Source of the DNA: Chloroflexota bacterium
GTDB taxonomy: Bacteria > Chloroflexota > Dehalococcoidia > Dehalococcoidales > UBA2162
Direction of reading: 5' to 3'
Length of the DNA: 64,000 nt
NCBI GenBank assembly: GCA_043812795.1
Contig: JBDRLU010000002.1
Span: 535 to 64,534 of the forward strand
Shown here: piece after piece, positions 4,108 to 58,070 of the stretch
Numbering within the stretch: the stretch's first letter is position 1
Layout of the letters: each line of letters starts with the position of its first letter
Position numbers and translations under genes: made by a program
Notes under the pieces: model-generated
The model's input: only the letters and a program-made list of their open reading frames with translations
The model's database searches: none
What the model was told of the DNA's origin: nothing

Positions 4108-4180
4108 CCCGTTCACCCGGAGCATGTCGAAGGGTGAACTTTTGCTAACAGCTATGGTTCGACGGGCTCACCATGAGCGG
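4108..4180 (+). repeat. bipartite palindromic element (same family as 1251-1323)
   Basis: CCCGTTCACCCGGAGCATGTCGAAGGGTGAAC ... GCTATGGTTCGACGGGCTCACCATGAGCGG. It overlaps the last codons and stop of the MFS gene 4152-5453. Confidence 0.75.
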
Positions 4181-5453
4181 TTTGTGAATGCTCTCCGCCT
4201 TTACGTCCGACCAACCCGACGCATAAAGCGGCGGCCAGCATCGTGATAGCCCCGATTAAAAAGGCGGTAGCATAGCTTCCCGTCACGTCGAAAATGAGTC
4301 CGCCCAGCAGCGGGCCGATGGCCGCCCCGGCCGCCCAGCCCAGGTCCAGTATCCCGAAGATAGTCCCGATTTTAGTCAGTTCGAAGGTATCGCCGATGAG
4401 CGCCCCGACACTGGCGCCGAGGCCGCCGTGGGCGAAGCCGAAGACTACGGCGAAGGCATAGAATTCTCTCAGGCCGTGCGCCCGGATAAGCCAGAGCATA
4501 GCGGCGGTCATCAGCAAGCAGCCGAAAACGGAGGTCAATTTCCGGCCGACTCTATCGGCGGCGGCACCCATGATGATTTTACCGGCGATGGTGCTGGCAC
4601 CGATAACACCGATAACGGCGGCGGCCGCCGCCGGCGAAATATCGATATCGGTAAGATAGGGTACCAGGTGGGTGAAGATTAAGAACACGGTGATACCCAG
4701 GAAAAACCAGACCAGCCACAGCCACCACAGGTTGCTTGTCTTGAGTATTTGCCGCAAGGGCATTGCTATTGCCCCGGTTTTTGGTTCGGTATGGTCGTTG
4801 GCAGGAAGAGCGAGGCCGTCGGGCTCGGCCCCGATTTCACGCGGCTCTTTTTTCAGCAACCGGGAGAGCGGAAGGATGATGAGCCAGGCGATTAGTCCGA
4901 CTACCAGGTAGGCGGTGCGCCAGTTGAAATCGGTAATCAGGTAGGTGGCCAGCGGGGCGATGACCACCGGCCCCAGCCCCGCCCCGGCATCGGCGATGCC
5001 CAGCGTCAAGCCCCGCCTCCGGTTAAACCAGCGGGCCACCGTCGAAGTCGGCACCACGTAGAGGGCGCCCGTTCCCATCGAAAGTAACAGGCTGTAGGTG
5101 AGAAACAATTGCCAGGTGGCGTGCGTCAGGCTGGTCAGCACCAGGCTCAGTCCGGTCAGCACGCCCATGAAGAGGACGATGATTTTGGGCCCGAATTTAT
5201 CTAACGTCAATCCGCCGAGAAAGGCGAACAGGCCGGTAAGTATCAGACTGGCCGAGGCAATGGCCGAGGTCGCCCCGCGGGATAAATCGAACTCGGTTTC
5301 GATGGACTTGAAGAAAACGCCGAAAGAAAAATAAATGCCGTAAAGAGTAATCCCGATAAACAGGAAAGCAATGACCACTACCCATCCGTAAAAAAGCTTA
5401 TGTCTGGACATGAACGATATCCCGCTGTGGAATTCAGTATCAGGATGCATCAT
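4152..5453 (-). CDS. MFS transporter (oxalate/formate antiporter-like)
   Basis: 433 aa, about 12 TM, with a central loop. The C-terminal residues ..TAHGEPVEP* are encoded by the repeat element. Confidence 0.75.
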   Translation of the reverse strand: MMHPDTEFHSGISFMSRHKLFYGWVVVIAFLFIGITLYGIYFSFGVFFKSIETEFDLSRGATSAIASASLILTGLFAFLGGLTLDKFGPKIIVLFMGVLTGLSLVLTSLTHATWQLFLTYSLLLSMGTGALYVVPTSTVARWFNRRRGLTLGIADAGAGLGPVVIAPLATYLITDFNWRTAYLVVGLIAWLIILPLSRLLKKEPREIGAEPDGLALPANDHTEPKTGAIAMPLRQILKTSNLWWLWLVWFFLGITVFLIFTHLVPYLTDIDISPAAAAAVIGVIGASTIAGKIIMGAAADRVGRKLTSVFGCLLMTAAMLWLIRAHGLREFYAFAVVFGFAHGGLGASVGALIGDTFELTKIGTIFGILDLGWAAGAAIGPLLGGLIFDVTGSYATAFLIGAITMLAAALCVGLVGRKGGEHSQTAHGEPVEP

Positions 5454-5873: not shown

Positions 5874-6446
5874 GTGAAGAATTTAAATGATAATCTATTT
5901 AGGTTTGCGGGGCTACTTCTCGCACTACTAAGTAGCCTAACTTTCATTGCGACAATCGGTTGCAGTAACTACAAACACTTTACCTTTAGAGAAAGCCCCT
6001 ATCATTTCTCGTTTGAGTATCCCGCTACCTATTATATTGAAAGAGCATTTATCGAACCTACTACTCCCCATGTGCTTGACCGTGTGATTATCAATATGGG
6101 ACCAGTGGGAAAGCCTGCACCAGGCGGTTTCGAGTTTGTGATATACCTCGACCCTTCTTCCGGAAACGCGACATCAGCCATGGATGGCAAATTACGGTTT
6201 ATTAGCCAACTCCCCGATCCTAAGGTTTTAGAGCGGACTTACGTAAAGGTAGCGGGCACATTAGGTGAAAAAGTTGAATATACAACACTCCCGCCTTCGA
6301 ACCCATTATTCAGGATTTTTAGACAAGCATTTTTCGTGCACGGAGACCGACTTTGGTCAGTGACTATGATTTCTGACAATATAACTGCGGAAAAAGACAA
6401 AGCAGCTTTTGAGCACATGTTGAAGACATTGGGGATTTATGACTAG
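5874..6446 (+). CDS. hypothetical lipoprotein (possible orphan immunity protein)
   Basis: GTG start after GGTGGGGGA. Signal peptide with a lipobox-like ..IATIGC. No family recognised. Confidence 0.5.
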   Translation: MKNLNDNLFRFAGLLLALLSSLTFIATIGCSNYKHFTFRESPYHFSFEYPATYYIERAFIEPTTPHVLDRVIINMGPVGKPAPGGFEFVIYLDPSSGNATSAMDGKLRFISQLPDPKVLERTYVKVAGTLGEKVEYTTLPPSNPLFRIFRQAFFVHGDRLWSVTMISDNITAEKDKAAFEHMLKTLGIYD

Positions 6447-6484
6447 CCTACATTTAGCTAGCAATCCCCACGCCTTCCTGCTAA

Positions 6485-6646
6485 AATATACTCAAAACCA
6501 GTGGAGGTGCTAATTGTTAAAGCCAAAATCACCTCAAACCTCGTTCTATGGTAGTTACCTCTATGATAGAATCGTCCCAGCCGACCACCTGCTTCGTAAA
6601 ATCAATCAGGTAGTTGATTTCTCATTTGTGAGGGTGATTTGGCCTA
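6485..6646 (+). mobile_element. IS remnant (N-terminal stub of an IS5/IS1182-like transposase)
   Basis: 6514-6645 reads LLKPKSPQTSFYGSYLYDRIVPADHLLRKINQVVDFSF... This resembles transposase N-termini I recall. It is only about 40 codons, and a second copy lies at 8118-8247. Confidence 0.55.
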
Positions 6647-7612
6647 ATGACTTTTTCAGCAGTCTGGTATGGAGATTGCCGAAATAGTCAGGGTAATTTG
6701 GGCACGGATAAACTCTTTACCGGCCAGAGACTGGATGACACCGGACTCTATTACTACGGCGCCAGGTACTACGACCCAATTATCGGGAGATTTATCTCAC
6801 CGGATACGTTCGTACCTAGAGGAAATGGATTCGATGTCATTTCAGCCCCGCTAACTGTCAATTTCATCCCGCAGGGATTAGGAAATGAGCTAGCACCTAG
6901 AAAGAACTATCCTAAAATCTCTCTTCAGGTTTCTGCGAATCCGCAGGCATTTAACCGATATTCGTATGTATTGGATAATCCGCTTAGGTATACCGACCCT
7001 AATGGATGGGATACTTGGGGAAATGGAATCAACGTAAACGTTGGTTTTGGTATCGGTGTTTCTGGTGAAGTCTTAATCGTCACCGATGATAAAGGCAATA
7101 GGCGATTGGCGATAACTCTAAGTGGTTTGGGAACTACTCCTACTTTTAGTATCGGGGGTCAATTTCAAAAGACGGATGCTCCCACAGTCTTTGACTTAGG
7201 GAAATGGTCCGGCGGGTTCGGAGGTTCAAGCGGATTGATTCCTTCAATGTTGCTCCCTTCTGGGGGTGAGTACATCGGTTATAATGGTGGCAGTAAAGGG
7301 ATGGGATGGAAAGGTTATAATTTGAATATTGGGCCCGGGCGCACTTTCGTACCAATAGAAGTGCATGCTTTAGTAGGCTATACTTGGTTAGTTCCCGTAC
7401 CTTCGTGGATTGCCAACACACTAGGAAATAACAGTGCATCAGTTAGTAATGTTGGGACAGTGATAGGGTCAGGGTTTGGATTTATCTTCATTAGCGTCGG
7501 TGGAGGTGCTTCTGGTGACAACAATGGTGTTTCTGGTGACAACGGTGGTTCTTCGGAGGTGGTTGTAATTGATATATATGCTGGGTATGATTACAACCCC
7601 TTTGATTACTAG
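6647..7612 (+). CDS. orphan RHS C-terminal module: end of the RHS core plus an unrecognised Gly-rich C-terminal (toxin?) domain
   Basis: YGDCRNSQG..LFTGQRLDD..GLYYYGARYYDPIIGRFISPD..NRYSYVLDNPLRYTDPNGW is followed by about 200 aa of G/S/N-rich sequence. The ATG is created at the IS-remnant junction. Confidence 0.75.
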   Translation: MTFSAVWYGDCRNSQGNLGTDKLFTGQRLDDTGLYYYGARYYDPIIGRFISPDTFVPRGNGFDVISAPLTVNFIPQGLGNELAPRKNYPKISLQVSANPQAFNRYSYVLDNPLRYTDPNGWDTWGNGINVNVGFGIGVSGEVLIVTDDKGNRRLAITLSGLGTTPTFSIGGQFQKTDAPTVFDLGKWSGGFGGSSGLIPSMLLPSGGEYIGYNGGSKGMGWKGYNLNIGPGRTFVPIEVHALVGYTWLVPVPSWIANTLGNNSASVSNVGTVIGSGFGFIFISVGGGASGDNNGVSGDNGGSSEVVVIDIYAGYDYNPFDY

Positions 7613-7761
7613 GATAAGGATTAATTCTTAAACGGAAGGGACATTTGTGTCGAAGTACTTCTTTAGGCGAGAAAAGTTAGTAATTGAACCGACTCTTATT
7701 ACTATCCTTTAAGGCTTATTCGCCAACATTGGTTTCTTTGCTGGAGCCTTAAGAAAAAATA

Positions 7762-8067
7762 ATGATTACCGAATTAATTATCAGCTTTATAATGGTTGTA
7801 TTAGGAACTATCTTGCTAATGTATTCTTCACGCCTTGGCAAGTGGATATTCAGTATTAGGGTAGAATTCGAAAAGGAATTCTCCTGGAATCGTGCAGCAA
7901 AACCTAAACAAGACAGGAGACGGTCTCGTCATTCATGGTTGTTATCTTCATCATACAGGGCTGCCCTTCAATACGGTCCTATTTTTGATATATGGGCGCT
8001 ACGCACCGTCGCTATAGGAGTTCTCCTATGGGCGATTATTTTTCTTTTTTTAGTTGTGTTTACTTAG
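7762..8067 (+). CDS. small membrane protein (candidate immunity protein)
   Basis: 101 aa with hydrophobic segments at both ends and a basic loop. It lies immediately downstream of the RHS tip. Confidence 0.45.
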   Translation: MITELIISFIMVVLGTILLMYSSRLGKWIFSIRVEFEKEFSWNRAAKPKQDRRRSRHSWLLSSSYRAALQYGPIFDIWALRTVAIGVLLWAIIFLFLVVFT

Positions 8068-47560: not shown

Positions 47561-48862
47561 CTACTTGCCGGCTACCGATAGCCCCGATAAATAAAGCGAC
47601 GGGGTATTCACCGAGTCATCGACCCATTTGGTATCGCTGCCGATGGCATTAATATTCTTGAGGAGACGGTAAACGTTTCCGGAAACCATGGTATCTTTCA
47701 CTCTACCTGTTATTTTACCATGTTCTACCTTATAACCTAAAAGAACGTTACCGCTGAAGTCACCGCCGAGGATATTACCCTGTTCGGCACCCATCAATTG
47801 TTCGATGACCAGCCCTTCCTGCATATCGCTCACCATTTCGGCGAAGGTGGTATTGCCTGGCGTGATAATGAAGGCACTCGGAGCAGGGGAGGGCAAGCTG
47901 CTGCCGCTTCTCTGGCCGTTGCCCGTACTTTGCTTATTGGCGCGGGCCGCCGTTTGCAGGTCGTAAAGAAAGTTGCGTACTACCCCCTGTTCGACGAGAG
48001 AGGTGAGTTGACTGGGTACGCCTTCATCGTCGCAGGGACGACTGGTCGGACGATAAGCGACGGTCGGGTCATCCCGGAGGGATAATTTGGCGTCGAAGCA
48101 AGATTGACCGAGTTTCGACCCGATGGGGGAGGCCCCTTCAAGGACTAACTTGCCGTTAAAGGCGGCCATCAGGGAGGGCATCAAGGCACCGGCGACACCA
48201 TCAGGAGTAAATATTACCGGTAAAGACTTAGTCGGAGCGACGGCCCGGTTTTTGGCGCGTTCCAGCTGTTCGATGACCGCCCCTGCGACTACGTCGGGTC
48301 TTGTTATCGGGTGACAGTCACTTTCACTGTCACCGACGAAGAGCATATCGGTCTCACGGATAAGATTACCCCAGATGCTCAGACTGAAGGTGGTCTGCTG
48401 ATAGCTGGCCTGCCCGCCACGGGAATTCATAATCTTGACCGAAGTTACACTTTTATTTACCCAGGCGTGGCAGAGAAGTTCGGGAGTGTGCCGGCGTAAA
48501 ATGGCCAGTAGCTCTTCACCGAGCGTGACCATGGCTTCGATGGGTACTTTCCCGACAGCCGGGTCGAAAACGGCGATGTGGGGGTAGGTAGTCGGGGTGG
48601 GGAAATCGAATTTGACGTCCATGCCGAACTGGGCTGTCTCGGCAGCCATCCTGACCAGGGTTTCACTGTCATCAAGGCGGGTGGCGGTAGCATAGCCCAG
48701 TTTACCCTGCTTGACCAGACGTAGCGCTACGGCCGTACGCTGTTTGCTCTGGATATGCTTCAGGCGGTTAGCTTCGAATTGAATCGGTGTCTCTTCTGAA
48801 GTTACCTGGAAGACTTCGGCTTCCTCGGCTACTTTTTTTGCTTGAGCCAGGATATTCTCCAC
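47561..48862 (-). CDS. pmbA: TldE/PmbA-family metalloprotease subunit
   Basis: 433 aa TldD/PmbA fold with the Gly-rich C-terminal region ..GAEQGNILGGDFSGN... GTG start abuts the tldD stop. Confidence 0.85.
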   Translation of the reverse strand: MENILAQAKKVAEEAEVFQVTSEETPIQFEANRLKHIQSKQRTAVALRLVKQGKLGYATATRLDDSETLVRMAAETAQFGMDVKFDFPTPTTYPHIAVFDPAVGKVPIEAMVTLGEELLAILRRHTPELLCHAWVNKSVTSVKIMNSRGGQASYQQTTFSLSIWGNLIRETDMLFVGDSESDCHPITRPDVVAGAVIEQLERAKNRAVAPTKSLPVIFTPDGVAGALMPSLMAAFNGKLVLEGASPIGSKLGQSCFDAKLSLRDDPTVAYRPTSRPCDDEGVPSQLTSLVEQGVVRNFLYDLQTAARANKQSTGNGQRSGSSLPSPAPSAFIITPGNTTFAEMVSDMQEGLVIEQLMGAEQGNILGGDFSGNVLLGYKVEHGKITGRVKDTMVSGNVYRLLKNINAIGSDTKWVDDSVNTPSLYLSGLSVAGK

Positions 48863-50239
48863 CTATTGTCCTCCGACTAAACAGTGCTGGATGCGGATAT
48901 GGGGACTGCCGTTGGATACCGGCAAAGGTGACTGGGCGCCCTTACCGCAGCCACCGCCTTCGTTCATATCGAGGTCATTGCCGATGGCATCGATATTCTT
49001 GAGGGTGGTAAAAACGTTGCCGGTCAGTGTTACCGGCCGCAGGAGTTCGGCGACTTTGCCGTTGCGAATCATATAGGCTTCACCGGCAGAAAAGGTGAAC
49101 ATTTCCATACTGGTGGTGCCGCCGTACCAGTTCTTGGCATAGACGCCTTCTTTAATATCGGCGATGATATCGGCAAACGAAGCTGATTTAGGCTCGATGT
49201 AAGTATTCGTCATGCGGACAATGGGCGGATAGCCGTAGTTAATAGCCCGGGCATTGCCGGTAGCTTCCTCCTGCATTTTGGCAGCAGTTTCACGGGAGTG
49301 GAGCCGCCCGACCAGTTTTCCTTCTCTAATCAGGTAGGTCTTGGTCGCTGGTGTGCCCTCGTCATCATATTTATAGCTGCCGCGCAGCCCCGGTACGGCC
49401 GCCGAATCAATGATGTCAAGTTCAGGGCGCCCGAATTCTTTGCCGAGGACCATAATCTCACGCATGCGTTCATTCTCGTAAACGAAGTCGGCTTCGGACA
49501 GATGCCCGAAAGCTTCGTGAACAAAAACACCGGCCAGGACCGGGTCTAAGATTACGGTGTACTCACCGCTTTTCACCTGCGGGGCCGAAAGCAGTTCCAC
49601 TGCCCGCCGGGCGCTGTTTGTTATTTGCTGGTGCAGATTTTTCAGCGTGCGAAAATCACCGCGGCTGCCCACACTTAATCCGGCCTGCTGTACCTCACCG
49701 CCTTCCACCGCCACGGCGGTTACCCGTAGCGTAATATCGGACCGCTCCTGCTCAATATCACTGCCGATTGAGTTCAGGAAGACGGTTTTTTTGTAGCTAT
49801 CCCCGTAACCGATGACGGAAGTCTGGAGTTTGGGTGTGCTCCAGATAAGGTCGTTGTATTCATCGAGCAATTGTTTTTTCTCTGACAGCGGGATTGCTAG
49901 GGGATTACGACCTGGCTCGATGAGTACCCGGTCTACAGTCGGCTCAACCGGAGCCAACTTGCTTTCGGCTTGACCCACCAGGCAGGCCTGTTCGATGGCG
50001 GCGTCAATTCTATCGGTCAAGTTGGCCAGGTTATTGAAACAGACAAATCCCCAGCCGCCTTTGACCAGCGCCCGCACATTGCCGCCGAGGGCAGTGCGGC
50101 GGGTCACCGATTCCAGCGTCCGGCCGCGGTAGGTAATCGAACTTGTCTGGCCCTCCTCGAGGCGGACTTCGAGGTAGTCGGCATTGTACTTCTTGAGTGT
50201 TCCGGCTATTTCCTGTCGGGCAGCTTCGATACTCGTCAT
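48863..50239 (-). CDS. tldD: TldD metalloprotease subunit
   Basis: ..VFVHEAFGHLSEAD.. (HExxxH zinc motif) and ..GGCGKGAQSPLPVSNGSPH... Confidence 0.9.
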   Translation of the reverse strand: MTSIEAARQEIAGTLKKYNADYLEVRLEEGQTSSITYRGRTLESVTRRTALGGNVRALVKGGWGFVCFNNLANLTDRIDAAIEQACLVGQAESKLAPVEPTVDRVLIEPGRNPLAIPLSEKKQLLDEYNDLIWSTPKLQTSVIGYGDSYKKTVFLNSIGSDIEQERSDITLRVTAVAVEGGEVQQAGLSVGSRGDFRTLKNLHQQITNSARRAVELLSAPQVKSGEYTVILDPVLAGVFVHEAFGHLSEADFVYENERMREIMVLGKEFGRPELDIIDSAAVPGLRGSYKYDDEGTPATKTYLIREGKLVGRLHSRETAAKMQEEATGNARAINYGYPPIVRMTNTYIEPKSASFADIIADIKEGVYAKNWYGGTTSMEMFTFSAGEAYMIRNGKVAELLRPVTLTGNVFTTLKNIDAIGNDLDMNEGGGCGKGAQSPLPVSNGSPHIRIQHCLVGGQ

Positions 50240-50445
50240 GTCGTTATCTTCTTTAAGGTGTAGCTAAGACCAGTTTACCGAGGTGGTCAGTCTATTGTCA
50301 ATCTACTTCATTTTACATAATAGTGGAGGAAAATGCCAATTACGATGTCGATTGTTACTGTTCTGGGCACTCGAGAGTTAAGCTGAAATTGACGAGGACT
50401 CCGCTGCTGGTATATCATCCTTTTAACAACTGCCAAGATAAGCCC

Positions 50446-51228
50446 ATGGTCGAAATCAAAAACCTTTGCTTCTCTTATCAGAAGAATGTTCCCATCTTCG
50501 CCGATTTTGGCTGGCATGTCGCTCAGGGCGAAGCCTGGTCAATAGTCGGCCCTTCCGGTTGCGGTAAGACAACGCTCCTCTACTTATTGGCTGGCCTCTA
50601 CCCACCATCGTCGGGGACGATAATTATCGGCGGCATGCCGCTGGATAAGCCTCGCCTCTCGACGGGTCTGGTTTTGCAGGACTATGGACTGCTGCCCTGG
50701 GCTACGGCTATCGACAATATCTCGGTCGGTTTAAGGATTCGTGGCGTAGAGAGAAAAGAGGCAACGCGGGTCGCTCGTGAGTGGTTGACCAGGCTGGCCC
50801 TCGATTCAGTAGCGGGCCATTATCCGGCCCAGCTAAGCGGCGGGCAGAGGCAGCGGGTGGCGATTGCCCGGACACTGGCCCTGCAACCCGACCTCTTATT
50901 GATGGATGAGCCGCTGGCTTCTCTGGATGCCATGACGCGAGAAGATTTACAGACCCTGATTATTGAGCTGCGGGATGTCCTGCCGGCAACGGCGATGGTA
51001 CTGGTGACACATGATATTGAAGAAGCAGTGTATCTGGGGAAAAAGATTCTAGTCCTGGACAATCCGCCCAATACGCATCCGGTAATTATGGAGAACCCGG
51101 ACTCCGGGTGTGCGGAATATCGCCGGACACCCGATTATGCGTTCAAGTGTGGAGAAGTGAGAGAGCTTTTTCGACAACAGGCAAAAAAATGTGGCGTTAA
51201 AACTATGAAAGTGGGACTCGGTAAATGA
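50446..51228 (+). CDS. ABC transporter ATP-binding protein (NitT/TauT, SsuB-like)
   Basis: Walker A GPSGCGKTT, signature LSGGQRQR, Walker B LLLMDEP. ATG 50446 is chosen from the family N-terminus MVEIKNLCFSY. Confidence 0.9.
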   Translation: MVEIKNLCFSYQKNVPIFADFGWHVAQGEAWSIVGPSGCGKTTLLYLLAGLYPPSSGTIIIGGMPLDKPRLSTGLVLQDYGLLPWATAIDNISVGLRIRGVERKEATRVAREWLTRLALDSVAGHYPAQLSGGQRQRVAIARTLALQPDLLLMDEPLASLDAMTREDLQTLIIELRDVLPATAMVLVTHDIEEAVYLGKKILVLDNPPNTHPVIMENPDSGCAEYRRTPDYAFKCGEVRELFRQQAKKCGVKTMKVGLGK

Positions 51229-52193
51229 AAGCGGCCATGACGGTGGGCCGGTTGAGCGGGTTCTGGCGTTCGTTGTTGACCGGCGAAGCGGCTATCAAGG
51301 CGGGCTATTCTTTCAGGGAACGATTATGGGGAATGCTCATCACGGTAAAGCCGCGTTTTGCCTTGATGGTCACGCCGGTAAATGCCGCCAGCGCGGCGGT
51401 GCTGGCCTACGGTGGTTATCCTTCGCTGACTAAATGTATCCTGGGCTTGCTCAGTGTGGCTTTTGTTTCCGCTTCAACTATCGTCTTCAACGATATCGTT
51501 GACCGCAAACGCGACGTTTTGTGCTGGCCGAAACGCTCGCTGCCCAGCGGCCGGGTAAGATTGATGCCGGCACTGGCGCTGGCTTTAATTTTGCTGGCTG
51601 GTTCGCTGGTACTGACCTGGCTAGCTTTTAACCCGCTGGCCTTCTTTATTCTTCTCTCGGTGTTTGCCTTGGGGATACTCTATGCCCTCTATTTACGGCG
51701 CAAAGTCGGCTACCTAGCACTGCCTCCGATTGTAGGCTTGATTTACCTCGGTGGCTGGGCAGCTTTTTCTCCCGAAACACTTTTTTCGGCGCGTCTGCCG
51801 TGGCTGCTTTATCTGCTCGGTGTGCTGTGGCAGGCGGCCCACATTATGGTCTATTCACCTCTCCATCCGCTGTATACCGAACAGGGCCAGCTGCGCACGG
51901 AAAGCAAGGCCCTTTTCGCGGCTACTTCGCCACGGACTGCCGTGGCCCTGGGGATGGGCTTCCTGGCCCTGACGGTGTTGCTGAGCGGGCTCTTACCGCT
52001 TTTTACCGGGCTGAGTTTTGTCTATCTTCCGCTGACCATCATTGCCGGGGGCTGGTCGCTGGTCCGTACCACACGATTTCTCCGTCAACCCACCGATAAG
52101 GAAGTAGGTTTCCGGGCTTTCAGCGCCGTTTCGACCTTGAGAACGGTGATATCGGGGGCCATTCTCCTCGACGTTTTGTTCCTCTGGAAATGA
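51225..52193 (+). CDS. divergent UbiA-superfamily prenyltransferase
   Basis: 8-9 TM protein. First Asp-rich motif is FNDIVDRKRD...RSLPSGR (NDxxDxxxD). ATGA overlaps with both neighbouring ABC genes. Confidence 0.75.
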   Translation: MKAAMTVGRLSGFWRSLLTGEAAIKAGYSFRERLWGMLITVKPRFALMVTPVNAASAAVLAYGGYPSLTKCILGLLSVAFVSASTIVFNDIVDRKRDVLCWPKRSLPSGRVRLMPALALALILLAGSLVLTWLAFNPLAFFILLSVFALGILYALYLRRKVGYLALPPIVGLIYLGGWAAFSPETLFSARLPWLLYLLGVLWQAAHIMVYSPLHPLYTEQGQLRTESKALFAATSPRTAVALGMGFLALTVLLSGLLPLFTGLSFVYLPLTIIAGGWSLVRTTRFLRQPTDKEVGFRAFSAVSTLRTVISGAILLDVLFLWK

Positions 52194-52936
52194 TGATGAG
52201 TAAGAAAGCGATAATCTTTGGTCTCTTGGTTCTGTTCTTTGCCTGGGCGGTAGTGGCCCTGGTGGTGGATAAACCGATGGTGCCGGCTCCCTGGGTGGTG
52301 ATTTATTCCTTTTTTGCCGACCTGCCCCGCGGCCTGGGCTGGCATGCTCTGGTCAGCGGCTGGCGGATAATCGCCAGTATGTTTATTGCCACGGCTATCG
52401 GGCTGCCGCTGGGGCTGGTACTGGGGCAGAACCGGCGGTGGGATAAAATTCTTTACCCGCTGGTATATTTGACTTATCCGGTGCCTAAGGTAGCCCTGCT
52501 GCCGATTATCATCCTGTTCTTCGGCATCGGGGACGCCAGCAAAATATTTCTCATCAGCCTCATTCTTTTCTTCCAGGTGCTGGTCGTGGTGCGGGACGCG
52601 TCCCGTAATATACCGGCCCAACTTGTCCTGTCGCTGCGTTCGCTGGGTGCCGACCGGTGGCAGCTTCTGCGCCACGTTTATTTTCCGGCATCATTACCGG
52701 CCGTCCTGACTTCATTACGATTGAATGTGGCTATTGCCATTGCTGTTCTTTATCTCGCCGAGTCTTTTGCCACCGCTTCGGGTTTAGGTTACTATGTTAT
52801 GGACGCTTGGCAGCGGATGGACTATGCCCGGATGTACGCTACGGTGGGTGCGATGAGCCTGATTGGTTTTATCGCTTTTGTCATCCTCGCCTTGATGGAA
52901 GACAAGCTCTGTCACTGGGCGCAGGTCGGTAAGTAG
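52190..52936 (+). CDS. ABC transporter permease (NitT/TauT, SsuC-like)
   Basis: 6 TM. EAA-type loop ..VVRDASRNIPAQLVLSLRSLGADRWQLLRHVYFPASLP... Confidence 0.9.
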   Translation: MMMSKKAIIFGLLVLFFAWAVVALVVDKPMVPAPWVVIYSFFADLPRGLGWHALVSGWRIIASMFIATAIGLPLGLVLGQNRRWDKILYPLVYLTYPVPKVALLPIIILFFGIGDASKIFLISLILFFQVLVVVRDASRNIPAQLVLSLRSLGADRWQLLRHVYFPASLPAVLTSLRLNVAIAIAVLYLAESFATASGLGYYVMDAWQRMDYARMYATVGAMSLIGFIAFVILALMEDKLCHWAQVGK

Positions 52937-52964
52937 GGGATGAGAAAAGTAAGGGAGGCTATTT

Positions 52965-54137
52965 ATGGCAATTAACGAGCGGAGATGGGTTATCCCGGCT
53001 TTCTGGGACAAGGAATATCTGGTGGAATTGGAGAAGGAAGGCCTCATCCCGTCTATTTACGAAGTCTATGGTTCCCTGTCCAGTTCCCCGATGGGTAGTA
53101 TGCGTACCCGGGCTTCACTCCCTGAAGCCACCACCAAAGACATCGGCGATTTCGTCCAGAAACTGCATACCAAGGGGATTAAGTTCAGCTATGCTCTCAA
53201 TGCTATGACTTTCCGTAATTCGGAATATACCGCCGGAGGGCGCAAAGAAATATTCAAGTTCCTGGACTGGCTGAAAGAGATAAGGGCCGACTCGGTGATT
53301 ATTGCCAATCCCTTTCTGGCCAAACTGATTAAAGAACATTATACCTTTGAGGTCAGTGTATCGTCGGTTGCCTGCGTTGATTCCGTACAGAAAGCGGCCG
53401 ATTGGCAGGAGATGAAGGTGGCCAGCATAAAATTACCGCTGGTGGCGAACCGTAATTTTTTATTGCTCCGGAGCATAATAAAAAATACTACGGCCGAGGT
53501 GGAAGTCATGGTCAACCAGCTCTGCCTTTACCAGTGCCCTTTTGAAAGGTACCATACCGTCACCACTTATACTGATTCCCAGGCGGCCAAGAGGTGGGGA
53601 AAAGCACCCGCCTTTCTCGATTGGTGCCGTTTGAACTGTAATCTGATACGCTGGGGAAATCCAGCCGAGCTCATCAAATCTCCCTTCATCAGGCCGGAAG
53701 ACGTGCCTCTCTACCGGCGCTGCGGCGTAAAGTTTTTCAAGATAGTCGGCCGGAATAAGAGGATGCGTAACCGGATAGTAACGGTAATTAAGGCGTACCA
53801 GACCGGGAAATGGCCGGGTAATCTACTGGATATTGTCGGTATTAATGAAAACCCGCCGCCTTTTGAAATGACGCAATACTATCCCGCCAGTGATTTCGAA
53901 AAGTACTTTACCGAACCGCTCTACTATGTGGATAATCCCAAACTGGCCGGATTTATCAATTATTTCATTGAGAACGGCCAGAAATGTTCTTATCTGTGCG
54001 GCACCTGCCAGTATTGCGACCAGACGGCGAATCGAGTTGTCCGGTTGCCTTCCGAAGAGAGATTGAAGAAATTCCTTGACGCGCTGAATGAACTGGACGC
54101 CGCTACCAAAACGAAAGAGAGCCGTCTCTTTGCTTAG
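52965..54137 (+). CDS. U32-peptidase-family protein (UbiU/UbiV/RlhA/TrhP-like fold), Cys-rich C-terminus
   Basis: By-eye alignment to UbiU: ..LHTKGIKFSYALNAM.., ..IRADSVIIANPFLAKLI.., ..EVSVSSVA.., ..VEVMVNQLCLYQCPF.., ..FFKIVGRNKR... It also has KCSYLCGTCQYC. Confidence 0.6.
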   Translation: MAINERRWVIPAFWDKEYLVELEKEGLIPSIYEVYGSLSSSPMGSMRTRASLPEATTKDIGDFVQKLHTKGIKFSYALNAMTFRNSEYTAGGRKEIFKFLDWLKEIRADSVIIANPFLAKLIKEHYTFEVSVSSVACVDSVQKAADWQEMKVASIKLPLVANRNFLLLRSIIKNTTAEVEVMVNQLCLYQCPFERYHTVTTYTDSQAAKRWGKAPAFLDWCRLNCNLIRWGNPAELIKSPFIRPEDVPLYRRCGVKFFKIVGRNKRMRNRIVTVIKAYQTGKWPGNLLDIVGINENPPPFEMTQYYPASDFEKYFTEPLYYVDNPKLAGFINYFIENGQKCSYLCGTCQYCDQTANRVVRLPSEERLKKFLDALNELDAATKTKESRLFA

Positions 54138-54172
54138 TATGCTACGCGAGCTTGAATTAACTTGGAGGTGTT

Positions 54173-55102
54173 ATGCTAAAACGACTAACTCCCGTCCTGC
54201 TCCTGATGGCTATTTTATTCGCTGGTTGTGCGCCGGCCACGTCACAACAAGAGCCGAGTCTGAAGATTGGCTCGTTGCCGCGCATTATCGACCTGCCGGC
54301 CTACGTGGCCCAGCAAGAAGGATTATTTGAGCGGCAAGGCGTTAAAGTAGAGATAGTGCCTTTCCGCAGTACGGTGGAGATGAATACCGCTTTGCTCGCC
54401 GAGCAACTCGATGGGATTATCCAGGATGTTTTTGAAGCGGTCAACATGAATAAAGAGCAGCCTACAGTGAAACTGGTCGGCCGTGCGATAATGCCTCGAA
54501 TGTTCCAGATTATTGCTGCCAAAGACAGCGGTATTAATAGCGTGTCCCAGTTGAAAGGTAAACAGGTAGCCGTGGCTACCAGTACCATCATCGATTATGG
54601 CCTTGACCGGTTACTGGTGGCTAATGGTCTGAACAGTGATGATATAACGAGAGTAAATATCCCGAGTATGCCGCTGCGCCTCGAGGCATTAAACCAGGGA
54701 CAGGTGCCGGTGGCGGCACTGAGCCGGCCTTTGTCTGATATGGCGGTGCTCGGTGGGGGTAAGATTGTTGTTGAGGACGATAAAGAACCTTTTGCCGGGC
54801 CGGGACTCGTTTTCTCGCTAACTGCGTTGAAAAATAAATCGGAAGCAATTAGCCGGTGTGTTGCGGCTTGGCAGGAGGCGGTTGAGGCTATCAACGCTGA
54901 GCCGGCGAAATACGAGAGTTTGCTGGCCGAAATTGCTCTCGCCCCAGCTTCGGTAAGTCTTGAGGTACCTACTTTTCCTTTGCTGGCTCTGCCGTCCGAA
55001 GCCGAGGTGAAATCGGTGGTTGACTGGTTCATCGCTAAGGGATTGGCCAGCAAGCCACTGGCTTATTCCGACGTGGTGGAGACGAAGTATCTGGCAAAGT
55101 GA
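54173..55102 (+). CDS. ABC substrate-binding lipoprotein (NMT1/THI5 / SsuA-like)
   Basis: Lipobox ..ILFAGC, then ..LKIGSLPRIIDLPAYVAQQEGLFERQGVKVEIVPF... Confidence 0.8.
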   Translation: MLKRLTPVLLLMAILFAGCAPATSQQEPSLKIGSLPRIIDLPAYVAQQEGLFERQGVKVEIVPFRSTVEMNTALLAEQLDGIIQDVFEAVNMNKEQPTVKLVGRAIMPRMFQIIAAKDSGINSVSQLKGKQVAVATSTIIDYGLDRLLVANGLNSDDITRVNIPSMPLRLEALNQGQVPVAALSRPLSDMAVLGGGKIVVEDDKEPFAGPGLVFSLTALKNKSEAISRCVAAWQEAVEAINAEPAKYESLLAEIALAPASVSLEVPTFPLLALPSEAEVKSVVDWFIAKGLASKPLAYSDVVETKYLAK

Positions 55103-55114
55103 TGAGTTGGTAAC

Positions 55115-55792
55115 ATGGCCACGGTTAGGAGAATTCCACTACCTCAGGAACCTATCGCTGAATTGCAGGCCGTCCTTGAATACGATAAAGGCGCCCGGTG
55201 CTACATCATGCCGGAATACAAATACTTCGTCCGAAAGATTTTGAACAGGGGGATACGAGGGGGCCGGGTACTGGATATCGGCACGGGGTCGGGGCGACTG
55301 GCGATTGAACTGGCCAAGAGAAAAAGCTGCGATTTTGAAATTATTGCTCTCGATATCTCCGAGAATATGGTGCGGCAAGCGAGAGCCAATGCCCGGCAAG
55401 CCGGCGTCGATAAGAAAATTAAATTCATGGTCGGTACGGCGGCGGCTCTTCCTTTTCCGGCCGGTTCCTTCGACCTCGTGATGAGCTACGCTTCATTGCA
55501 CCACTGGTTCGAACCGGTAGCCGTGTTCAATGAAATCGGGCGGGTGGTAAAAGAAGCTGGAACTTACATTATCCGTGATAATAAGAGGCTGTATCACAAT
55601 CCCCTATGGAAACCGGTTATCTGGCTGATGTCCCGCTTTATGAATAAGCGGCACCGGGAAAACTGGCCGAAAGCAATTATGGCCAGCTATACTGTCCCAG
55701 AAATCAGAGAAATACTGGACCAATCTGAGCTTAAGAAATGGTGCGTAAAGAGCGACTTCGTGGGGGTTGACCTGTCTATCGAATCACGCTAG
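55115..55792 (+). CDS. class I SAM-dependent methyltransferase
   Basis: Motif I VLDIGTGSGRLAIELAK; post-I ALDISENM; ..FDLVMSYASLHH... Confidence 0.85.
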   Translation: MATVRRIPLPQEPIAELQAVLEYDKGARCYIMPEYKYFVRKILNRGIRGGRVLDIGTGSGRLAIELAKRKSCDFEIIALDISENMVRQARANARQAGVDKKIKFMVGTAAALPFPAGSFDLVMSYASLHHWFEPVAVFNEIGRVVKEAGTYIIRDNKRLYHNPLWKPVIWLMSRFMNKRHRENWPKAIMASYTVPEIREILDQSELKKWCVKSDFVGVDLSIESR

Positions 55793-57330
55793 AGGACGAG
55801 GGCGTAGCCGACCATATCAATCAGGCCGTGGACGGTAGCGCCCGTCTTGTAGTAAGCCATCGTGTTGGGGAGCTGGGCTTTACAGATAGCACAGGGGGCA
55901 ATCAAGATAAGGGCGCCGGTAGCTTTGACCTGCTCGGCTTTCGGTTTGGAGAACTTCATTCTTAAGTCCATCAACTCATCCATGAGTATACCCGAACCTC
56001 CACCGCAGCAGAAGTTTCTGTCGCCATTGGGCCACATCTCTCTGAAATCCTCGCAGACGGCCTTTACAATCTGGCGCGGCTGTTCGATATAGCCCGCCGC
56101 GCGGCTCATGTTACACGGGTCATGGAGAGTCACCGGTAACGGGTTAGCCGATGGGTCGAGCTTTATTCTTTTGTCCCGGATATAGTCCAGGGTTTCGTCC
56201 ATCAAGTGGGTCAGTTTGTAAGGCATGGGTTTGCTGAGCTGGGAGGTAAACATCTTCCATGTCCTCCAGCCATGCCCGCATTCACCGGCTACAATCCGCT
56301 TTGCCTTCAGCCGCCTCGCCTCGTCAATTAAGAGGTTGTTGTGTCTCTTCATGGCGGCGTAGTCGAAGAACAGGCCGAAGTTAGCCGTCTCGATAATCTT
56401 GCTGCTTAGCGTCCAGCTTGTTCCGGCGGCATAGAACATTTTGGCGGCACCTTTTAAACTCTCGAAAGTGACGAAGAACTCGGAAGACGATGGATTAAAA
56501 AGTACCTCAGCACCTTCGTTGTCGATAGGGAGGGGGATATCTTTCCCGGTCTCCTCCTTCATCTCTTCCTCGATGAATTTACAGGTATCCGCCATTGCTT
56601 TCGGAGGTATAGCGATATTATTACCGAACTTCTGGGCACCCTTGGCGACGGAGGCGACGAAGTCGGGGACGATGCCCAGGTTGGTTAATATCTGCCGGCC
56701 CATGATAGTTATCTCACAGGTGTCCAGCCCGAAGGGGCAGATGACAGCGCAGCGTCGGCACTCATTACACTGATAGAAATATTTGTACCAGAGGTCTATT
56801 GTCTCCGGGCTGATATCTTCTCCACCGGCGAACCTGCCGAAAAACCGTCCGGCGCGGGTGAAGTACCTCTTATAGATTTTACGCATCAGTTCGACCCGGC
56901 CGACCGGGGCATTATTGGGGTCGCCGGTGCCGAGGTAGGTATGGCAGGCTTTGACGCAGGCACCACATTTACTGCAAATATCCATGATGAGAAGCAACGA
57001 CCGGAAGTTCTCCCTCGTTTCACCCAGTAAATCGAGAGCTCTTTGTGGCGTTTGTTCCCGCGGTGTCGGCTCGGGAGTACCCAGGATAGCTAAGTCTTGC
57101 GGTCTGGCCCTAAAGGGCCGGTCGGTAGATTTTTTGACCAGTCCCTCGACCATTTTAGCGACCATTTCCACTTCATCGGCCGGTGTAAGGTGGTACTTCT
57201 GGCGGTCGGCGTCGCTTACCTGCGGCGTGCCACGGCTATCATATTCCGCTTTGTCAGGTGGGGTGGTAATCTTACGGATATATTCGTCCAAGGCTCTTTG
57301 TTCGCTCTCGCTGATTTTTTCGGTCTTCAT
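55789..57330 (-). CDS. Fe-S oxidoreductase, HdrD/DsrK/GlpC-like
   Basis: CSKCGACVKACHTY and CNECRRCAVICPFG (two 4Fe-4S motifs), plus two CCG-type Cys-rich domains (..FCCGGGSG.., ..APCAICK..). Confidence 0.8.
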   Translation of the reverse strand: MKTEKISESEQRALDEYIRKITTPPDKAEYDSRGTPQVSDADRQKYHLTPADEVEMVAKMVEGLVKKSTDRPFRARPQDLAILGTPEPTPREQTPQRALDLLGETRENFRSLLLIMDICSKCGACVKACHTYLGTGDPNNAPVGRVELMRKIYKRYFTRAGRFFGRFAGGEDISPETIDLWYKYFYQCNECRRCAVICPFGLDTCEITIMGRQILTNLGIVPDFVASVAKGAQKFGNNIAIPPKAMADTCKFIEEEMKEETGKDIPLPIDNEGAEVLFNPSSSEFFVTFESLKGAAKMFYAAGTSWTLSSKIIETANFGLFFDYAAMKRHNNLLIDEARRLKAKRIVAGECGHGWRTWKMFTSQLSKPMPYKLTHLMDETLDYIRDKRIKLDPSANPLPVTLHDPCNMSRAAGYIEQPRQIVKAVCEDFREMWPNGDRNFCCGGGSGILMDELMDLRMKFSKPKAEQVKATGALILIAPCAICKAQLPNTMAYYKTGATVHGLIDMVGYALVL

Positions 57331-58070
57331 TTGACGACAGCCCCTCCCGGGACAAGCGGTTCTTCTTTCTGCGTTATCGTCCAGCGGTTAACGATTTGTC
57401 CTAGAGGATGGAATAGTTTGCTGAAGGGGAAATAGATAAATAAGGTGAAAGCGGTGGCAACGTGGACCGGAAAAATCCAGCTACCGGCGACGACATAGGG
57501 ATGGAAAGTGGCCAGGCCCAGGCCCCATTTCATCACTTCCGCCATATCAACCTCGGTGAAGAAACTCATGTAGGTACCGTTAACCACGTGGAAGAGGATT
57601 AAGCCAAGAGCAACGTAATCGGTGGGTATGGTAATCCTTCTCACTTCCGGGGTAAAAAGACGCTTGAAGAGCAAGATGAGCAAAGTGGCAATTAGCGGGA
57701 AGGAGAAGGTAGCGGCTACATAGAGAATAGCTTTGCCCTGAGGGATAACGAGAGGTGTCCACAGTTCGATGCCGGCATCGATTAAGCCAAAAAAGTGAGT
57801 GCCTACCAGGACGACTAAAGCACAAATGTGCATTATCCAGGCGATAACCCAGAGGACTTTATCGCTTCTGAGCAGACTGATGAAGAGGAAAAACTCGGCG
57901 GCGATTTTACCGGTTGCCGCCTTCCAGGTTGTTTTAGCCGGGGCTAGGCCGATGCGCAATGGCACGGGTGTCTGTAACCAGTACCAGAGACGATAGGCAG
58001 TGCCCAAGACGAAGATAATAATCGCGATGTAAGGAAAGATACCCTCAATGAAGAAAGCTAGACCATTCAT
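57327..58070 (-). CDS. membrane cytochrome b-like subunit, NarI/DsrM/HdrE family
   Basis: 247 aa, 5 TM, with conserved His in TM2 and TM5. Start/stop overlaps the Fe-S subunit gene. Confidence 0.65.
   Translation of the reverse strand: MNGLAFFIEGIFPYIAIIIFVLGTAYRLWYWLQTPVPLRIGLAPAKTTWKAATGKIAAEFFLFISLLRSDKVLWVIAWIMHICALVVLVGTHFFGLIDAGIELWTPLVIPQGKAILYVAATFSFPLIATLLILLFKRLFTPEVRRITIPTDYVALGLILFHVVNGTYMSFFTEVDMAEVMKWGLGLATFHPYVVAGSWIFPVHVATAFTLFIYFPFSKLFHPLGQIVNRWTITQKEEPLVPGGAVVK

Follow-up and report, generated by a model that had tools for sequence, protein, structure and literature searches.

In the late steps of menaquinone synthesis, MenA prenylates and MenG methylates 1,4-dihydroxy-2-naphthoate (DHNA), and some organisms salvage exogenous DHNA. 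Dehalococcoidia rank among the most abundant bacteria of anoxic sediments and aquifers. The Dehalococcoides in culture are said to have no quinones, yet many uncultivated relatives encode complexes that depend on them (DsrMK/DsrAB, PhsABC-like enzymes and FixCX). In the O2-independent ubiquinone pathway of proteobacteria (UbiA, UbiE/UbiG and UbiT-UbiU-UbiV), UbiU and UbiV hydroxylate ubiquinone precursors without O2 (PMC6747719; PMC10990095), prephenate being the demonstrated oxygen donor of their reactions (PMC10990095), and in Dehalococcoidia that carry dsr genes the menaquinone pool is believed to supply DsrMK with electrons (PMC4959651). Here we analyse a six-gene operon at positions 50446-55792 of a 64,000-nucleotide stretch of DNA (the window) from a Chloroflexota bacterium of the order Dehalococcoidales (GCA_043812795.1, contig JBDRLU010000002.1, positions 535 to 64,534). 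The operon combines a predicted ATP-binding cassette (ABC) importer with a UbiA-superfamily prenyltransferase homologue, a U32-fold protein and a class I S-adenosylmethionine (SAM) methyltransferase, MT2, and it is a trimmed, transporter-bearing variant of a Dehalococcoidia-specific module whose core is UbiA plus MT2.

The locus resembles several described systems, each in part. With the UbiTUV pathway it shares the combination of a UbiA-family, a UbiE-like and a U32 protein in an anaerobe but, unlike that pathway, it occurs in the phylum Chloroflexota, has a single U32 protein of another subfamily with neither UbiV nor UbiT, has its genes interleaved with those of an ABC importer while UbiD/UbiX and UbiG are not linked, and in sister loci exchanges U32 for two radical-SAM enzymes or a metallo-β-lactamase (MBL)-fold protein. 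Prenylation of a preformed dihydroxy-aromatic acid by a UbiA-superfamily enzyme followed by UbiE-type C-methylation, yielding a quinone for anaerobic respiratory complexes such as DsrMK and PhsABC, is the logic of MenA and MenG that the locus would share, although the prenyltransferase of the window is not MenA and the operon encodes a dedicated importer and a U32 protein. TauABC and SsuABC have the same three-component architecture and fold and are, in sequence and in structure, the nearest matches to the importer which, unlike them, scores below the cut-offs, has the sulfonate-binding Gln replaced, is not accompanied by SsuD/TauD and sits within an operon for a prenyltransferase and a methyltransferase. 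Heme O synthase (CyoE/CtaB) has in common with the UbiA homologue the first Asp motif and WQxxH, whereas the window locus shows no linkage to a heme-copper oxidase and no DDY-type acidic residues follow its WQxAH. Finally, the U32 peptidase Mk0906 (5d88) and the candidate U32 hydroxylases RlhA and TrhP share the N-terminal TIM-barrel-like U32 fold but not the extra C-terminal domain of ~130 residues with Cx3Cx2Cx2C that the window protein carries, and the operon context suggests that the substrate of the latter is a small molecule rather than RNA. An earlier note on this DNA knew of no described pathway with such a layout, and our literature search, itself incomplete, likewise found none. Relative to known quinone pathways, the enzyme families are familiar; the UbiA motif, the U32 subfamily and its Cys pattern, the embedded importer and the swap-in alternatives are new.

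Organization of the operon

All six genes lie on the plus strand. They encode, in order, an ABC ATP-binding subunit of the NitT/TauT type (50446-51228), the atypical UbiA-superfamily prenyltransferase (51225-52193), the ABC transporter permease (52190-52936), the U32-fold protein, for which two metal or Fe-S sites are predicted (52965-54137), the lipoprotein substrate-binding protein (SBP) of the importer, with an NMT1/SsuA fold (54173-55102), and the UbiE/COQ5-like MT2 (55115-55792). Junctions read directly from the sequence comprise ATGA overlaps at 51225-51228 (ATPase/UbiA) and 52190-52193 (UbiA/permease) and gaps of 28 nt (permease/U32), 35 nt (U32/SBP) and 12 nt (SBP/MT2), and the U32 and SBP genes are each preceded by a GGAGG-type Shine-Dalgarno sequence. 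The six same-strand open reading frames (ORFs), the two ATGA overlaps and the gaps of 12-35 nt had been given in the earlier note correctly to the base; its conclusion that they form a single operon agrees with these overlaps and short gaps, and its six family calls hold at the Pfam level, with all scores above gathering cut-offs. None of the six proteins reaches any curated NCBIfam equivalog cut-off. The six genes are one real operon, and their linkage is not due to chance: at least seven further loci, from different metagenome-assembled genomes (MAGs) or metagenomes, keep these genes together.

A mechanical ORF call places the ATPase start at GTG 50323. The ATG at 50446 is the better start, because residue 1 of the L001 orthologue (see below) aligns there and because a promoter-like site, TTGACG-18-TATCAT, lies at 50389-50418 on the plus strand, within the divergent intergenic stretch of 206 nt that precedes the operon; this site comes from a consensus scan only and is weak alone. 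The leader (50150-50500) contained no Rfam element even at E ≤ 1, and no riboswitch, for thiamin pyrophosphate (TPP) or other ligands, was found in the window at the Rfam gathering score.

A module with fixed ends and an exchangeable middle

Loci of relatives, from MAGs and metagenomes, are labelled L001, L002 and so on; 20 of them, from species-representative genomes and found with a UbiA alignment, were mapped with a protein panel. MT1 denotes a second methyltransferase, and rSAMa and rSAMb a pair of radical-SAM enzymes. In every locus type UbiA and MT2 are the fixed ends and the middle is exchangeable, being occupied by the radical-SAM pair in most genomes, by importer plus radical-SAM genes, by importer plus U32 and MT1, by importer plus an MBL-fold gene or, in the window, by importer plus U32.

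The most frequent arrangement, which we call canonical, was present in 14 of these 20, whole in eight and cut off by a contig end in the rest, with the core order Fer4_11-NrfD-molybdopterin subunit-[variable pair]-UbiA-rSAMa-rSAMb-MT2-Zn-ribbon protein, where the variable pair is either FixC-FixX or a 116-aa protein plus a cytochrome b, and with a Crp/Fnr regulator gene upstream. We found no description of this highly conserved Dehalococcoidia operon in the literature. It is shared by L021, L023, L024, L029-L033, L035, L037 and L038 (for example L023:4423-14448); its Fer4_11 protein is DsrO/NrfC-like, its radical-SAM enzymes are paralogues of the 'variant' type, its Zn-ribbon protein is of the FmdB type, and its Crp/Fnr gene is divergent. 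The molybdopterin subunit is PhsA-like and aligned from PhsA residue 39, no Tat leader being seen. MqnC/MqnE of the futalosine pathway were considered for the radical-SAM genes and rejected, only 'variant rSAM' and MSMEG_0568-family models having matched, and the radical-SAM enzymes have no PDB relative by sequence.

Orthologues of the window U32 protein, ~60% identical to it, occur in five other loci (L001, L002, L007, L013 and L014). U32-type loci have the order FixC-FixX-UbiA-MT1-ATPase-permease-U32-SBP-MT2 followed by convergent DsrK-DsrM, with a CDP-alcohol transferase gene divergent ahead of FixC; in L014, dsrA starts after dsrM. Importer and radical-SAM genes coexist without U32 in L029 (UbiA-ATPase-permease-SBP-rSAMa-rSAMb-MT2), where a PhsABC-like operon is present and there are no dsr genes within 10 kb. 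L026 and L040, without U32 and without radical-SAM genes, have UbiA-MT1-ATPase-MBL-fold protein-permease-SBP-MT2, and in L040 DsrKM, DsrAB, DsrN and DsrC are encoded after MT2. The MBL-fold (Lactamase_B_2) genes (L040:8309-9061 and L026:10762-11511) sit in the slot between ATPase and permease that ubiA takes in the window. A further type, in L010 and L022, consists of UbiA, a 77-aa protein, an HdrD/TfrB-like CCG protein and MT2, with aromatic-metabolism genes upstream, namely those for indolepyruvate:ferredoxin oxidoreductase, a PaaI-like arylacetyl-CoA thioesterase and 3-deoxy-D-arabinoheptulosonate 7-phosphate (DAHP) synthase. The window order is unique among the loci examined, lacking FixCX and MT1 and being the only one with ubiA inside the transporter genes, translationally coupled between those for ATPase and permease. 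By tblastn, the 64 kb contain no FixC/FixX, MT1, radical-SAM, Mo-enzyme/NrfD, dsrAB or MBL gene.

ORF clustering over 27 loci revealed no polyprenyl synthase, UbiD/X, men or mqn partner, the Crp/Fnr regulator being the sole further partner to emerge; a scan of species-representative genomes with a close U32 alignment yielded no confirmed locus. Thus, the gene linkage of UbiA, importer, U32 and methyltransferase that had been noted in the window is kept in relatives, but the conserved unit is UbiA plus MT2 and not the six-gene arrangement, and the importer and U32, taken at first as fixed members, are optional inserts in place of which most genomes have two radical-SAM enzymes. The importer belongs to the module as an accessory and is not mere surroundings, given that it always lies between UbiA and MT2, does so in L029 without dsr genes, and in the window has ubiA coupled inside it.

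The UbiA homologue and MT2

UbiA enzymes use a second Asp-rich motif to bind Mg-diphosphate. The window protein matches Pfam UbiA (PF01040) over residues 54-294 with 87.5 bits (cut-off 34.2) and has an intact first Asp motif (N89-D90-I-V-D93-R-K-R96-D97, with N89, D93, R96 and D97 invariant in 15 of 15 clade members), but the second (DxxxD, in the loop between transmembrane helices 6 and 7) is absent. In its stead is an invariant W202-Q-x-A-H206-I-M-x-Y-x-P-x-H214 with no Asp, a region that aligns to YDTQYAMVDRDDD of UbiA and to WQMPH of CyoE. Profile-profile comparison (hhalign) gave E ~1e-8 to both E. coli CyoE and E. coli UbiA and no significant match to E. coli MenA (2.6% probability), and there was no MenA model among the NCBIfam matches. 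The homologue scored 63.4 bits against the heme O synthase model TIGR01473 (cut-off 210.3) and 44.2 and 35.3 bits against the models NF009521 (cut-off 296) and NF009522 (cut-off 353) of the digeranylgeranylglyceryl phosphate (DGGGP)/geranylgeranylglyceryl phosphate (GGGP) synthase type, and it was also below the cut-offs for chlorophyll synthase and every other NCBIfam model. Its closest PDB sequence is a DGGGP synthase, 6m31, a weak match (E = 3e-4 over 114 residues). The clade, far larger than that of the U32 protein, numbers at least 254 clusters at ~50% identity, mostly from Dehalococcoidia, in which the window protein is an outlier, 46-54% identical to all other members, while copies of types C and E are 63-90% identical mutually. 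A crude hydropathy count with a strict threshold gave four strong segments, was uninformative and was not used. The homologue is therefore a separate branch within the superfamily, and its acceptor is not readable from homology. By curated cut-offs it falls outside the heme O and DGGGP families, which the earlier note had named as possible non-quinone placements, although the missing second Asp motif and the shared WQxxH leave a non-quinone acceptor possible.

MT2 matched Pfam Methyltransf_25 with 87 bits (cut-off 27) and Ubie_methyltran with 62.6 bits (cut-off 20.1), and has VLDIGTGSG as motif I. Against NCBIfam it reached 62.8 bits for TIGR01934 (cut-off 158), ~60 bits for UbiE equivalogs (cut-offs 216-378) and 68.7 bits for CpaM; the class I family call made previously stands, and the likeness to UbiE is only generic. 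With the methyltransferase at the end of the UbiA-rSAMa-rSAMb-MT2 operons the window protein shares 69-71% identity, as an ordinary orthologue.

The U32 protein and its subfamily

Most U32 families have the [4Fe-4S] motif Cx6Cx15Cx3/4C, which in UbiU is Cx6Cx16Cx38C (PMC6747719). The protein encoded at 52965-54137 matched Peptidase_U32 (PF01136) with 45.2 bits (cut-off 22.4), over profile positions 3-90 of 233 only, that is, its N-terminal part, and no NCBIfam model matched. Its AlphaFold2 (AF2) model (pLDDT 91.5, pTM 0.92) found Mk0906 (5d88), the only solved U32 structure, as the best Foldseek match (E = 6.5e-12, TM 0.75) by a wide margin, the other matches being generic TIM barrels. With hhalign, residues 55-198 aligned on UbiU 42-183 at 86% probability, placing C187/C191 in the region of UbiU C169/C176, and profile comparison to UbiV gave no significant match. 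The Cys pattern is C187-x3-C191-x5-H197...C225 plus a C-terminal C341-x3-C345-x2-C348-x2-C351, and C187, C191, H197, C225 and the four C-terminal Cys are each kept in 57-60 of 60 diverse family members; the family also has an invariant R-P-x-D motif whose third position is E in at least 90% of the sequences. Its earlier assignment to U32 is thus borne out by Pfam and by fold, but its Cys pattern is not the published one.

An exhaustive profile search delineated a subfamily of 1,045 clusters at 50% identity (E ≤ 1e-30, full-length architecture); the much smaller family of 24 clusters obtained with a word-indexed search proved to be a sensitivity artefact. Distant members sit in unrelated gene contexts. 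In one member of the subfamily, P0281 (L016:2586-5953; 924 aa), a TrpE/PabB-like domain of the chorismate-aminating kind and a chorismate mutase of type II are fused to a U32 domain that is 30% identical to the window protein with the motifs kept, and the P0281 gene overlaps the end of a preceding gene for a TrpG/PabA amidotransferase. Chorismate mutase makes prephenate, and the fusion accordingly lends independent genomic support to a prephenate-type reaction on a small chorismate-derived aromatic. We consider the window U32 protein a candidate O2-independent, prephenate-type hydroxylase.

Other members of the subfamily occur in varied surroundings. P0013, encoded in L008 (907-4582) and L009 and 47% identical, is the closest outgroup of the U32 clade of the window; its gene lies between split pieces of a phosphoenolpyruvate (PEP)-synthase-like protein (PEP-utilizers swivel, PPDK_N) and a gene for a family-less 355-aa protein, with a radical-SAM/SPASM gene nearby, in a layout reminiscent of phenol/aryl phosphorylating systems. 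In the P0145 cluster (HEY48741.1/HEY48742.1, Dehalococcoidia) two subfamily genes are adjacent, and their products may form a heterodimer like UbiU-UbiV. P0152, P0168, P0185 and P0200 have a C-terminal extension weakly matching DUF2621.

The ABC importer

The ATPase, permease and SBP together have the features of a binding-protein-dependent ABC importer. The ATPase (ABC_tran, 109 bits, cut-off 25) has Walker A GPSGCGKT, signature LSGGQ, Walker B LLLMDE and H-loop VTHD motifs, is 58-65% identical to its orthologues in L001, L002, L007, L013 and L040 and 55% to that in L029, and has TauB as its best NCBIfam match (197 bits, cut-off 357). The permease (BPD_transp_1, 100 bits, cut-off 26.4) is an ordinary orthologue, 71-76% identical to its counterparts; its best NCBIfam matches are SaoP, TauC and SsuC, all below cut-offs (TauC 100 bits, cut-off 342). 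The SBP (NMT1, 67.6 bits, cut-off 20.5; SsuA_fam, 101 bits, cut-off 163.5) has a lipoprotein-type leader ending in ...LFAGC, and its AF2 model (pLDDT 93.4) has SsuA and TauA as nearest structures at 16-22% identity, in a fold that also includes binders of thiamin, N-formyl-4-amino-5-aminomethyl-2-methylpyrimidine (FAMP), pyrroloquinoline quinone (PQQ) and aryl sulfinate.

TauA holds its sulfonate through the Gln30 side chain and backbone amides (PMC6906117). At the position of this TauA/SsuA Gln, all 40 of 40 members of the SBP clade have Leu, Ile or Met, and Y142, R169, D80, S66 and W285 are invariant in the clade, which comprises at least 132 clusters, all from Dehalococcoidia where named.

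Respiratory neighbours of the module

The MT2 stop codon overlaps that of a convergent gene (55789-55792) for a DsrK-like, HdrD-type CCG/Fe-S subunit (55789-57330, minus strand; NCBIfam DsrK, 433.5 bits against a cut-off of 400). This position is occupied in L001, L002, L014 and L040 at 71-75% identity. The next gene (57327-58070, minus strand) encodes a DsrM-like membrane cytochrome b of the NarI family (Pfam Nitrate_red_gam 63 bits; DsrM 89.5 bits, below cut-off), which is kept in L014 and L040 with dsrAB directly next; in the 64-kb window, dsrAB, dsrC and dsrN were not found. The DsrM-like protein is the quinol-interacting partner of DsrK and the likely user of the lipid product proposed below. 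Beyond the DsrK-DsrM pair is a ribosomal protein L7/L12-L10-L1-L11 cluster.

In the loci examined, and in independent arrangements, the UbiA-MT2 core is always encoded beside genes of quinone-interacting respiratory modules, which include Fer4_11-NrfD-molybdopterin (PhsA/DsrO-like) sets, FixC/FixX, an FdnI-like cytochrome b, the TfrB/HdrD-like CCG protein, and DsrMK followed by DsrAB-DsrN-DsrC. The Mo-enzyme of the canonical operon comes closest to thiosulfate reductase PhsA. With 336-347 bits the FAD protein is FixC-like, and a FixX ferredoxin goes with it, as in the electron transfer flavoprotein (ETF):quinone-oxidoreductase type; its identification as a geranylgeranyl reductase is less likely, given 121-125 bits against 336-347 for FixC, and the FixX partner. 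These neighbour complexes are membrane-quinone-interacting systems in characterised organisms, and their constant company supports a quinone-like product for the module.

A possible route to a quinone-like lipid, and alternatives

We propose that the SBP, permease and ATPase would import a small, anionic aromatic head-group precursor, that the U32 protein would hydroxylate the head group without O2, that the UbiA homologue would add a polyprenyl chain and that MT2 would methylate the ring, probably in this order. UbiA and MT2 would thereby carry out the final two steps, in parallel with MenA and MenG. The resulting lipid would be a quinone-like electron carrier of the membrane, used here by the adjacent DsrMK and in relatives by PhsABC-like/NrfD, FixCX, cytochrome b and DsrAB systems. 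The middle genes of the module would supply or tailor the head group, the radical-SAM pair doing so in most genomes; in the lineage of the window, the head group would come from the importer together with tailoring enzymes (U32 and/or MT1, or the MBL-fold protein). That an aromatic head group is here taken up, hydroxylated independently of O2, prenylated and methylated into a quinone-like lipid is a tentative reading, to which we give slightly less than an even chance. In its favour, the SBP is without the sulfonate-binding Gln and has relatives in its fold family that bind aromatic cofactors such as PQQ and thiamin, and ubiA of L010 comes after three genes of aromatic metabolism. Of the imported aromatic and quinone-like lipid first suggested for this locus, the respiratory context and the chorismate mutase fusion are in favour, and the UbiA motif and the U32 Cys pattern are not.

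Several further observations weigh against the proposed pathway. The nearest characterised relatives of the importer transport sulfonates or taurine, and the locus abuts dsr genes. The U32 Cys spacing departs from the published Cx6Cx15Cx3/4C, there is one U32 gene instead of a UbiU-UbiV pair, and no UbiT-like (SCP2) product is among the six; in two loci, moreover, the enzyme slot of the transporter holds an MBL hydrolase-type protein, which fits hydrolysis equally. The UbiA homologue is without the second Asp motif, has WQxxH in common with heme O synthase, and has a DGGGP synthase as its closest solved relative by sequence, if weakly; for MT2, UbiE/MenG models fit no better than those of other class I methyltransferases do. 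Polyprenyl-diphosphate synthase and ring decarboxylase genes are not linked in the 27 loci clustered, and NrfD-type complexes of Dehalococcoides are reported to function without quinones (PMC10772276).

The importer genes invite another explanation, in which importer and U32 or MBL enzyme process an organosulfonate or sulfur anion for Dsr/Phs-like respiration while UbiA and MT2 merely belong to the same respiratory island. All three transporter proteins are closest to TauABC/SsuABC, and SsuA and TauA head the structural matches of the SBP model; dsrMK adjoins the window locus and dsrMK-dsrAB the L014 and L040 loci, the canonical Mo-enzyme resembles PhsA, and the sulfite source of dsr-bearing marine Dehalococcoidia has been stated as unresolved (PMC4959651). 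However, every SsuA/TauA score is under its curated cut-off, the sulfonate-binding Gln is replaced throughout the SBP clade, the transporter lies between ubiA and MT2 even where dsr genes are absent within 10 kb (L029), ubiA is translationally coupled inside the transporter genes of the window, and no known desulfonating enzyme (SsuD/TauD, the glycyl-radical enzyme IslA or Xsc) is linked, so that we regard this explanation as unlikely. Salvage of a vitamin or cofactor, of the ThiXYZ (thiamin pyrimidine) or PQQ type, by a transporter functionally unrelated to UbiA, U32 and MT2 is hardly credible: the NMT1/THI5 fold is shared, and its structural neighbours include ThiY, a thiamin-binding SBP and PqqT, but, unlike ThiXYZ loci, the window locus has neither a TPP riboswitch, nor any other in the searches of leader and window described above, nor adjacent thiamin genes; PQQ genes are not linked either, and in locus after locus the transporter stays between ubiA and MT2. 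A narrower departure would keep the pathway as proposed but make U32 a hydrolase or peptidase-like enzyme that frees the head group from an imported conjugate, as the MBL-fold protein might elsewhere. L026 and L040, with an MBL (Lactamase_B_2) gene within the transporter genes and without U32, make the two look interchangeable; MBL-fold enzymes are usually hydrolases, and U32 was first defined as a peptidase family. Against this, the slots differ (MBL between ATPase and permease, U32 between permease and SBP), the near-invariant Cys/His residues and the chorismate mutase fusion point to redox/prephenate chemistry, and experimentally studied U32 members have been linked to hydroxylation, which leaves this version improbable.

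Two other alternatives concern the prenyl acceptor. A heme-O-synthase-like enzyme could prenylate a tetrapyrrole for cytochrome b, DsrM or siroheme enzymes, with MT2 and the radical-SAM or U32 proteins tailoring the tetrapyrrole. The invariant WQxAH aligns on WQMPH of CyoE, heme O synthase is among the best NCBIfam matches at 63 bits, the neighbours include two heme b proteins, DsrM and the FdnI-like cytochrome b, as well as the siroheme enzyme DsrAB together with DsrN, and weak best matches of MT2 include a corrinoid-associated methyltransferase and BchM/ChlM. Yet those 63 bits are far under the cut-off of 210 and E. coli UbiA matches equally well; the partners NrfD, FixCX and the HdrD-like protein are without heme yet interact with quinones; the radical-SAM enzymes miss the Ahb, NirJ and HemN models; and NMT1-type SBPs are not known to bind heme. 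We accord the tetrapyrrole acceptor only a slim chance. Slimmer still is that of a non-redox polyprenyl or ether lipid made in the manner of DGGGP synthase, with the FixC-like protein saturating the chain and the CDP-alcohol phosphatidyltransferase adding a head group. The closest PDB sequence, 6m31, is a DGGGP synthase (E = 3e-4), the FixC-like protein also matches the geranylgeranyl reductase superfamily (121-125 bits), and a divergent CDP-OH transferase gene adjoins the module in L001, L002, L013, L025, L026 and L040; but DGGGP synthase models gave 44 bits against a cut-off of 296, the FAD protein scores much higher as FixC (336-347 bits) and comes with a FixX ferredoxin, neither the window nor the canonical operons contain the CDP-OH transferase gene, and MT2, U32, the importer and the constant respiratory neighbours would be left unexplained.

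Returning to the quinone-like product, a wider proposal, which is possible but rather doubtful, is that Dehalococcoidia possess an unrecognised O2-independent route to a quinone or other redox lipid, built on a His-bearing UbiA homologue and a methyltransferase, in which radical-SAM synthesis is interchangeable with salvage through the importer together with a prephenate-type U32 or an MBL-fold enzyme. If true, it would explain the quinone supply for DsrMK, NrfD and FixCX in Dehalococcoidia with dsr- and Phs-type respiration, and a dedicated, conserved module for a prenylated redox lipid would fill this gap in their energy metabolism. A large uncharacterised U32 subfamily would gain its first small-molecule, non-ubiquinone function, hydroxylation of the U32 type without O2 would be known from a second biological context besides that of ubiquinone, and the UbiA family would acquire an enzyme with a new catalytic motif. 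De novo supply and salvage of the head group, swapped within one operon frame, would imply cross-feeding of quinone precursors in anoxic communities. In the natural chorismate mutase fusion P0281, prephenate-dependent chemistry of a U32 protein could readily be examined on a substrate of the aminobenzoate type.

Other features of the window

The rest of the window is ordinary chromosome, with arg genes, aminoacyl-tRNA synthetase genes, recG, tuf, tRNA genes and the ribosomal L11/L1/L10/L12 cluster with its L10 leader. A TldD/PmbA metalloprotease pair (47561-50239, minus strand) is divergently upstream of the operon and is not kept beside the module in any relative. At 5223-5384 (minus strand) there is a weak tblastn match to the 77-aa protein of L010 (37% over 54 residues, E = 1e-6), inside an ORF for a major facilitator superfamily (MFS) transporter (4152-5453) and probably due to chance or low complexity. 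Close to it, two plus-strand ORFs without a Pfam match (5874-6446 and 6647-7612) belong to a region of low GC content (6001-8000; 0.43 compared with ~0.53 elsewhere) that may be foreign or fast-evolving DNA.

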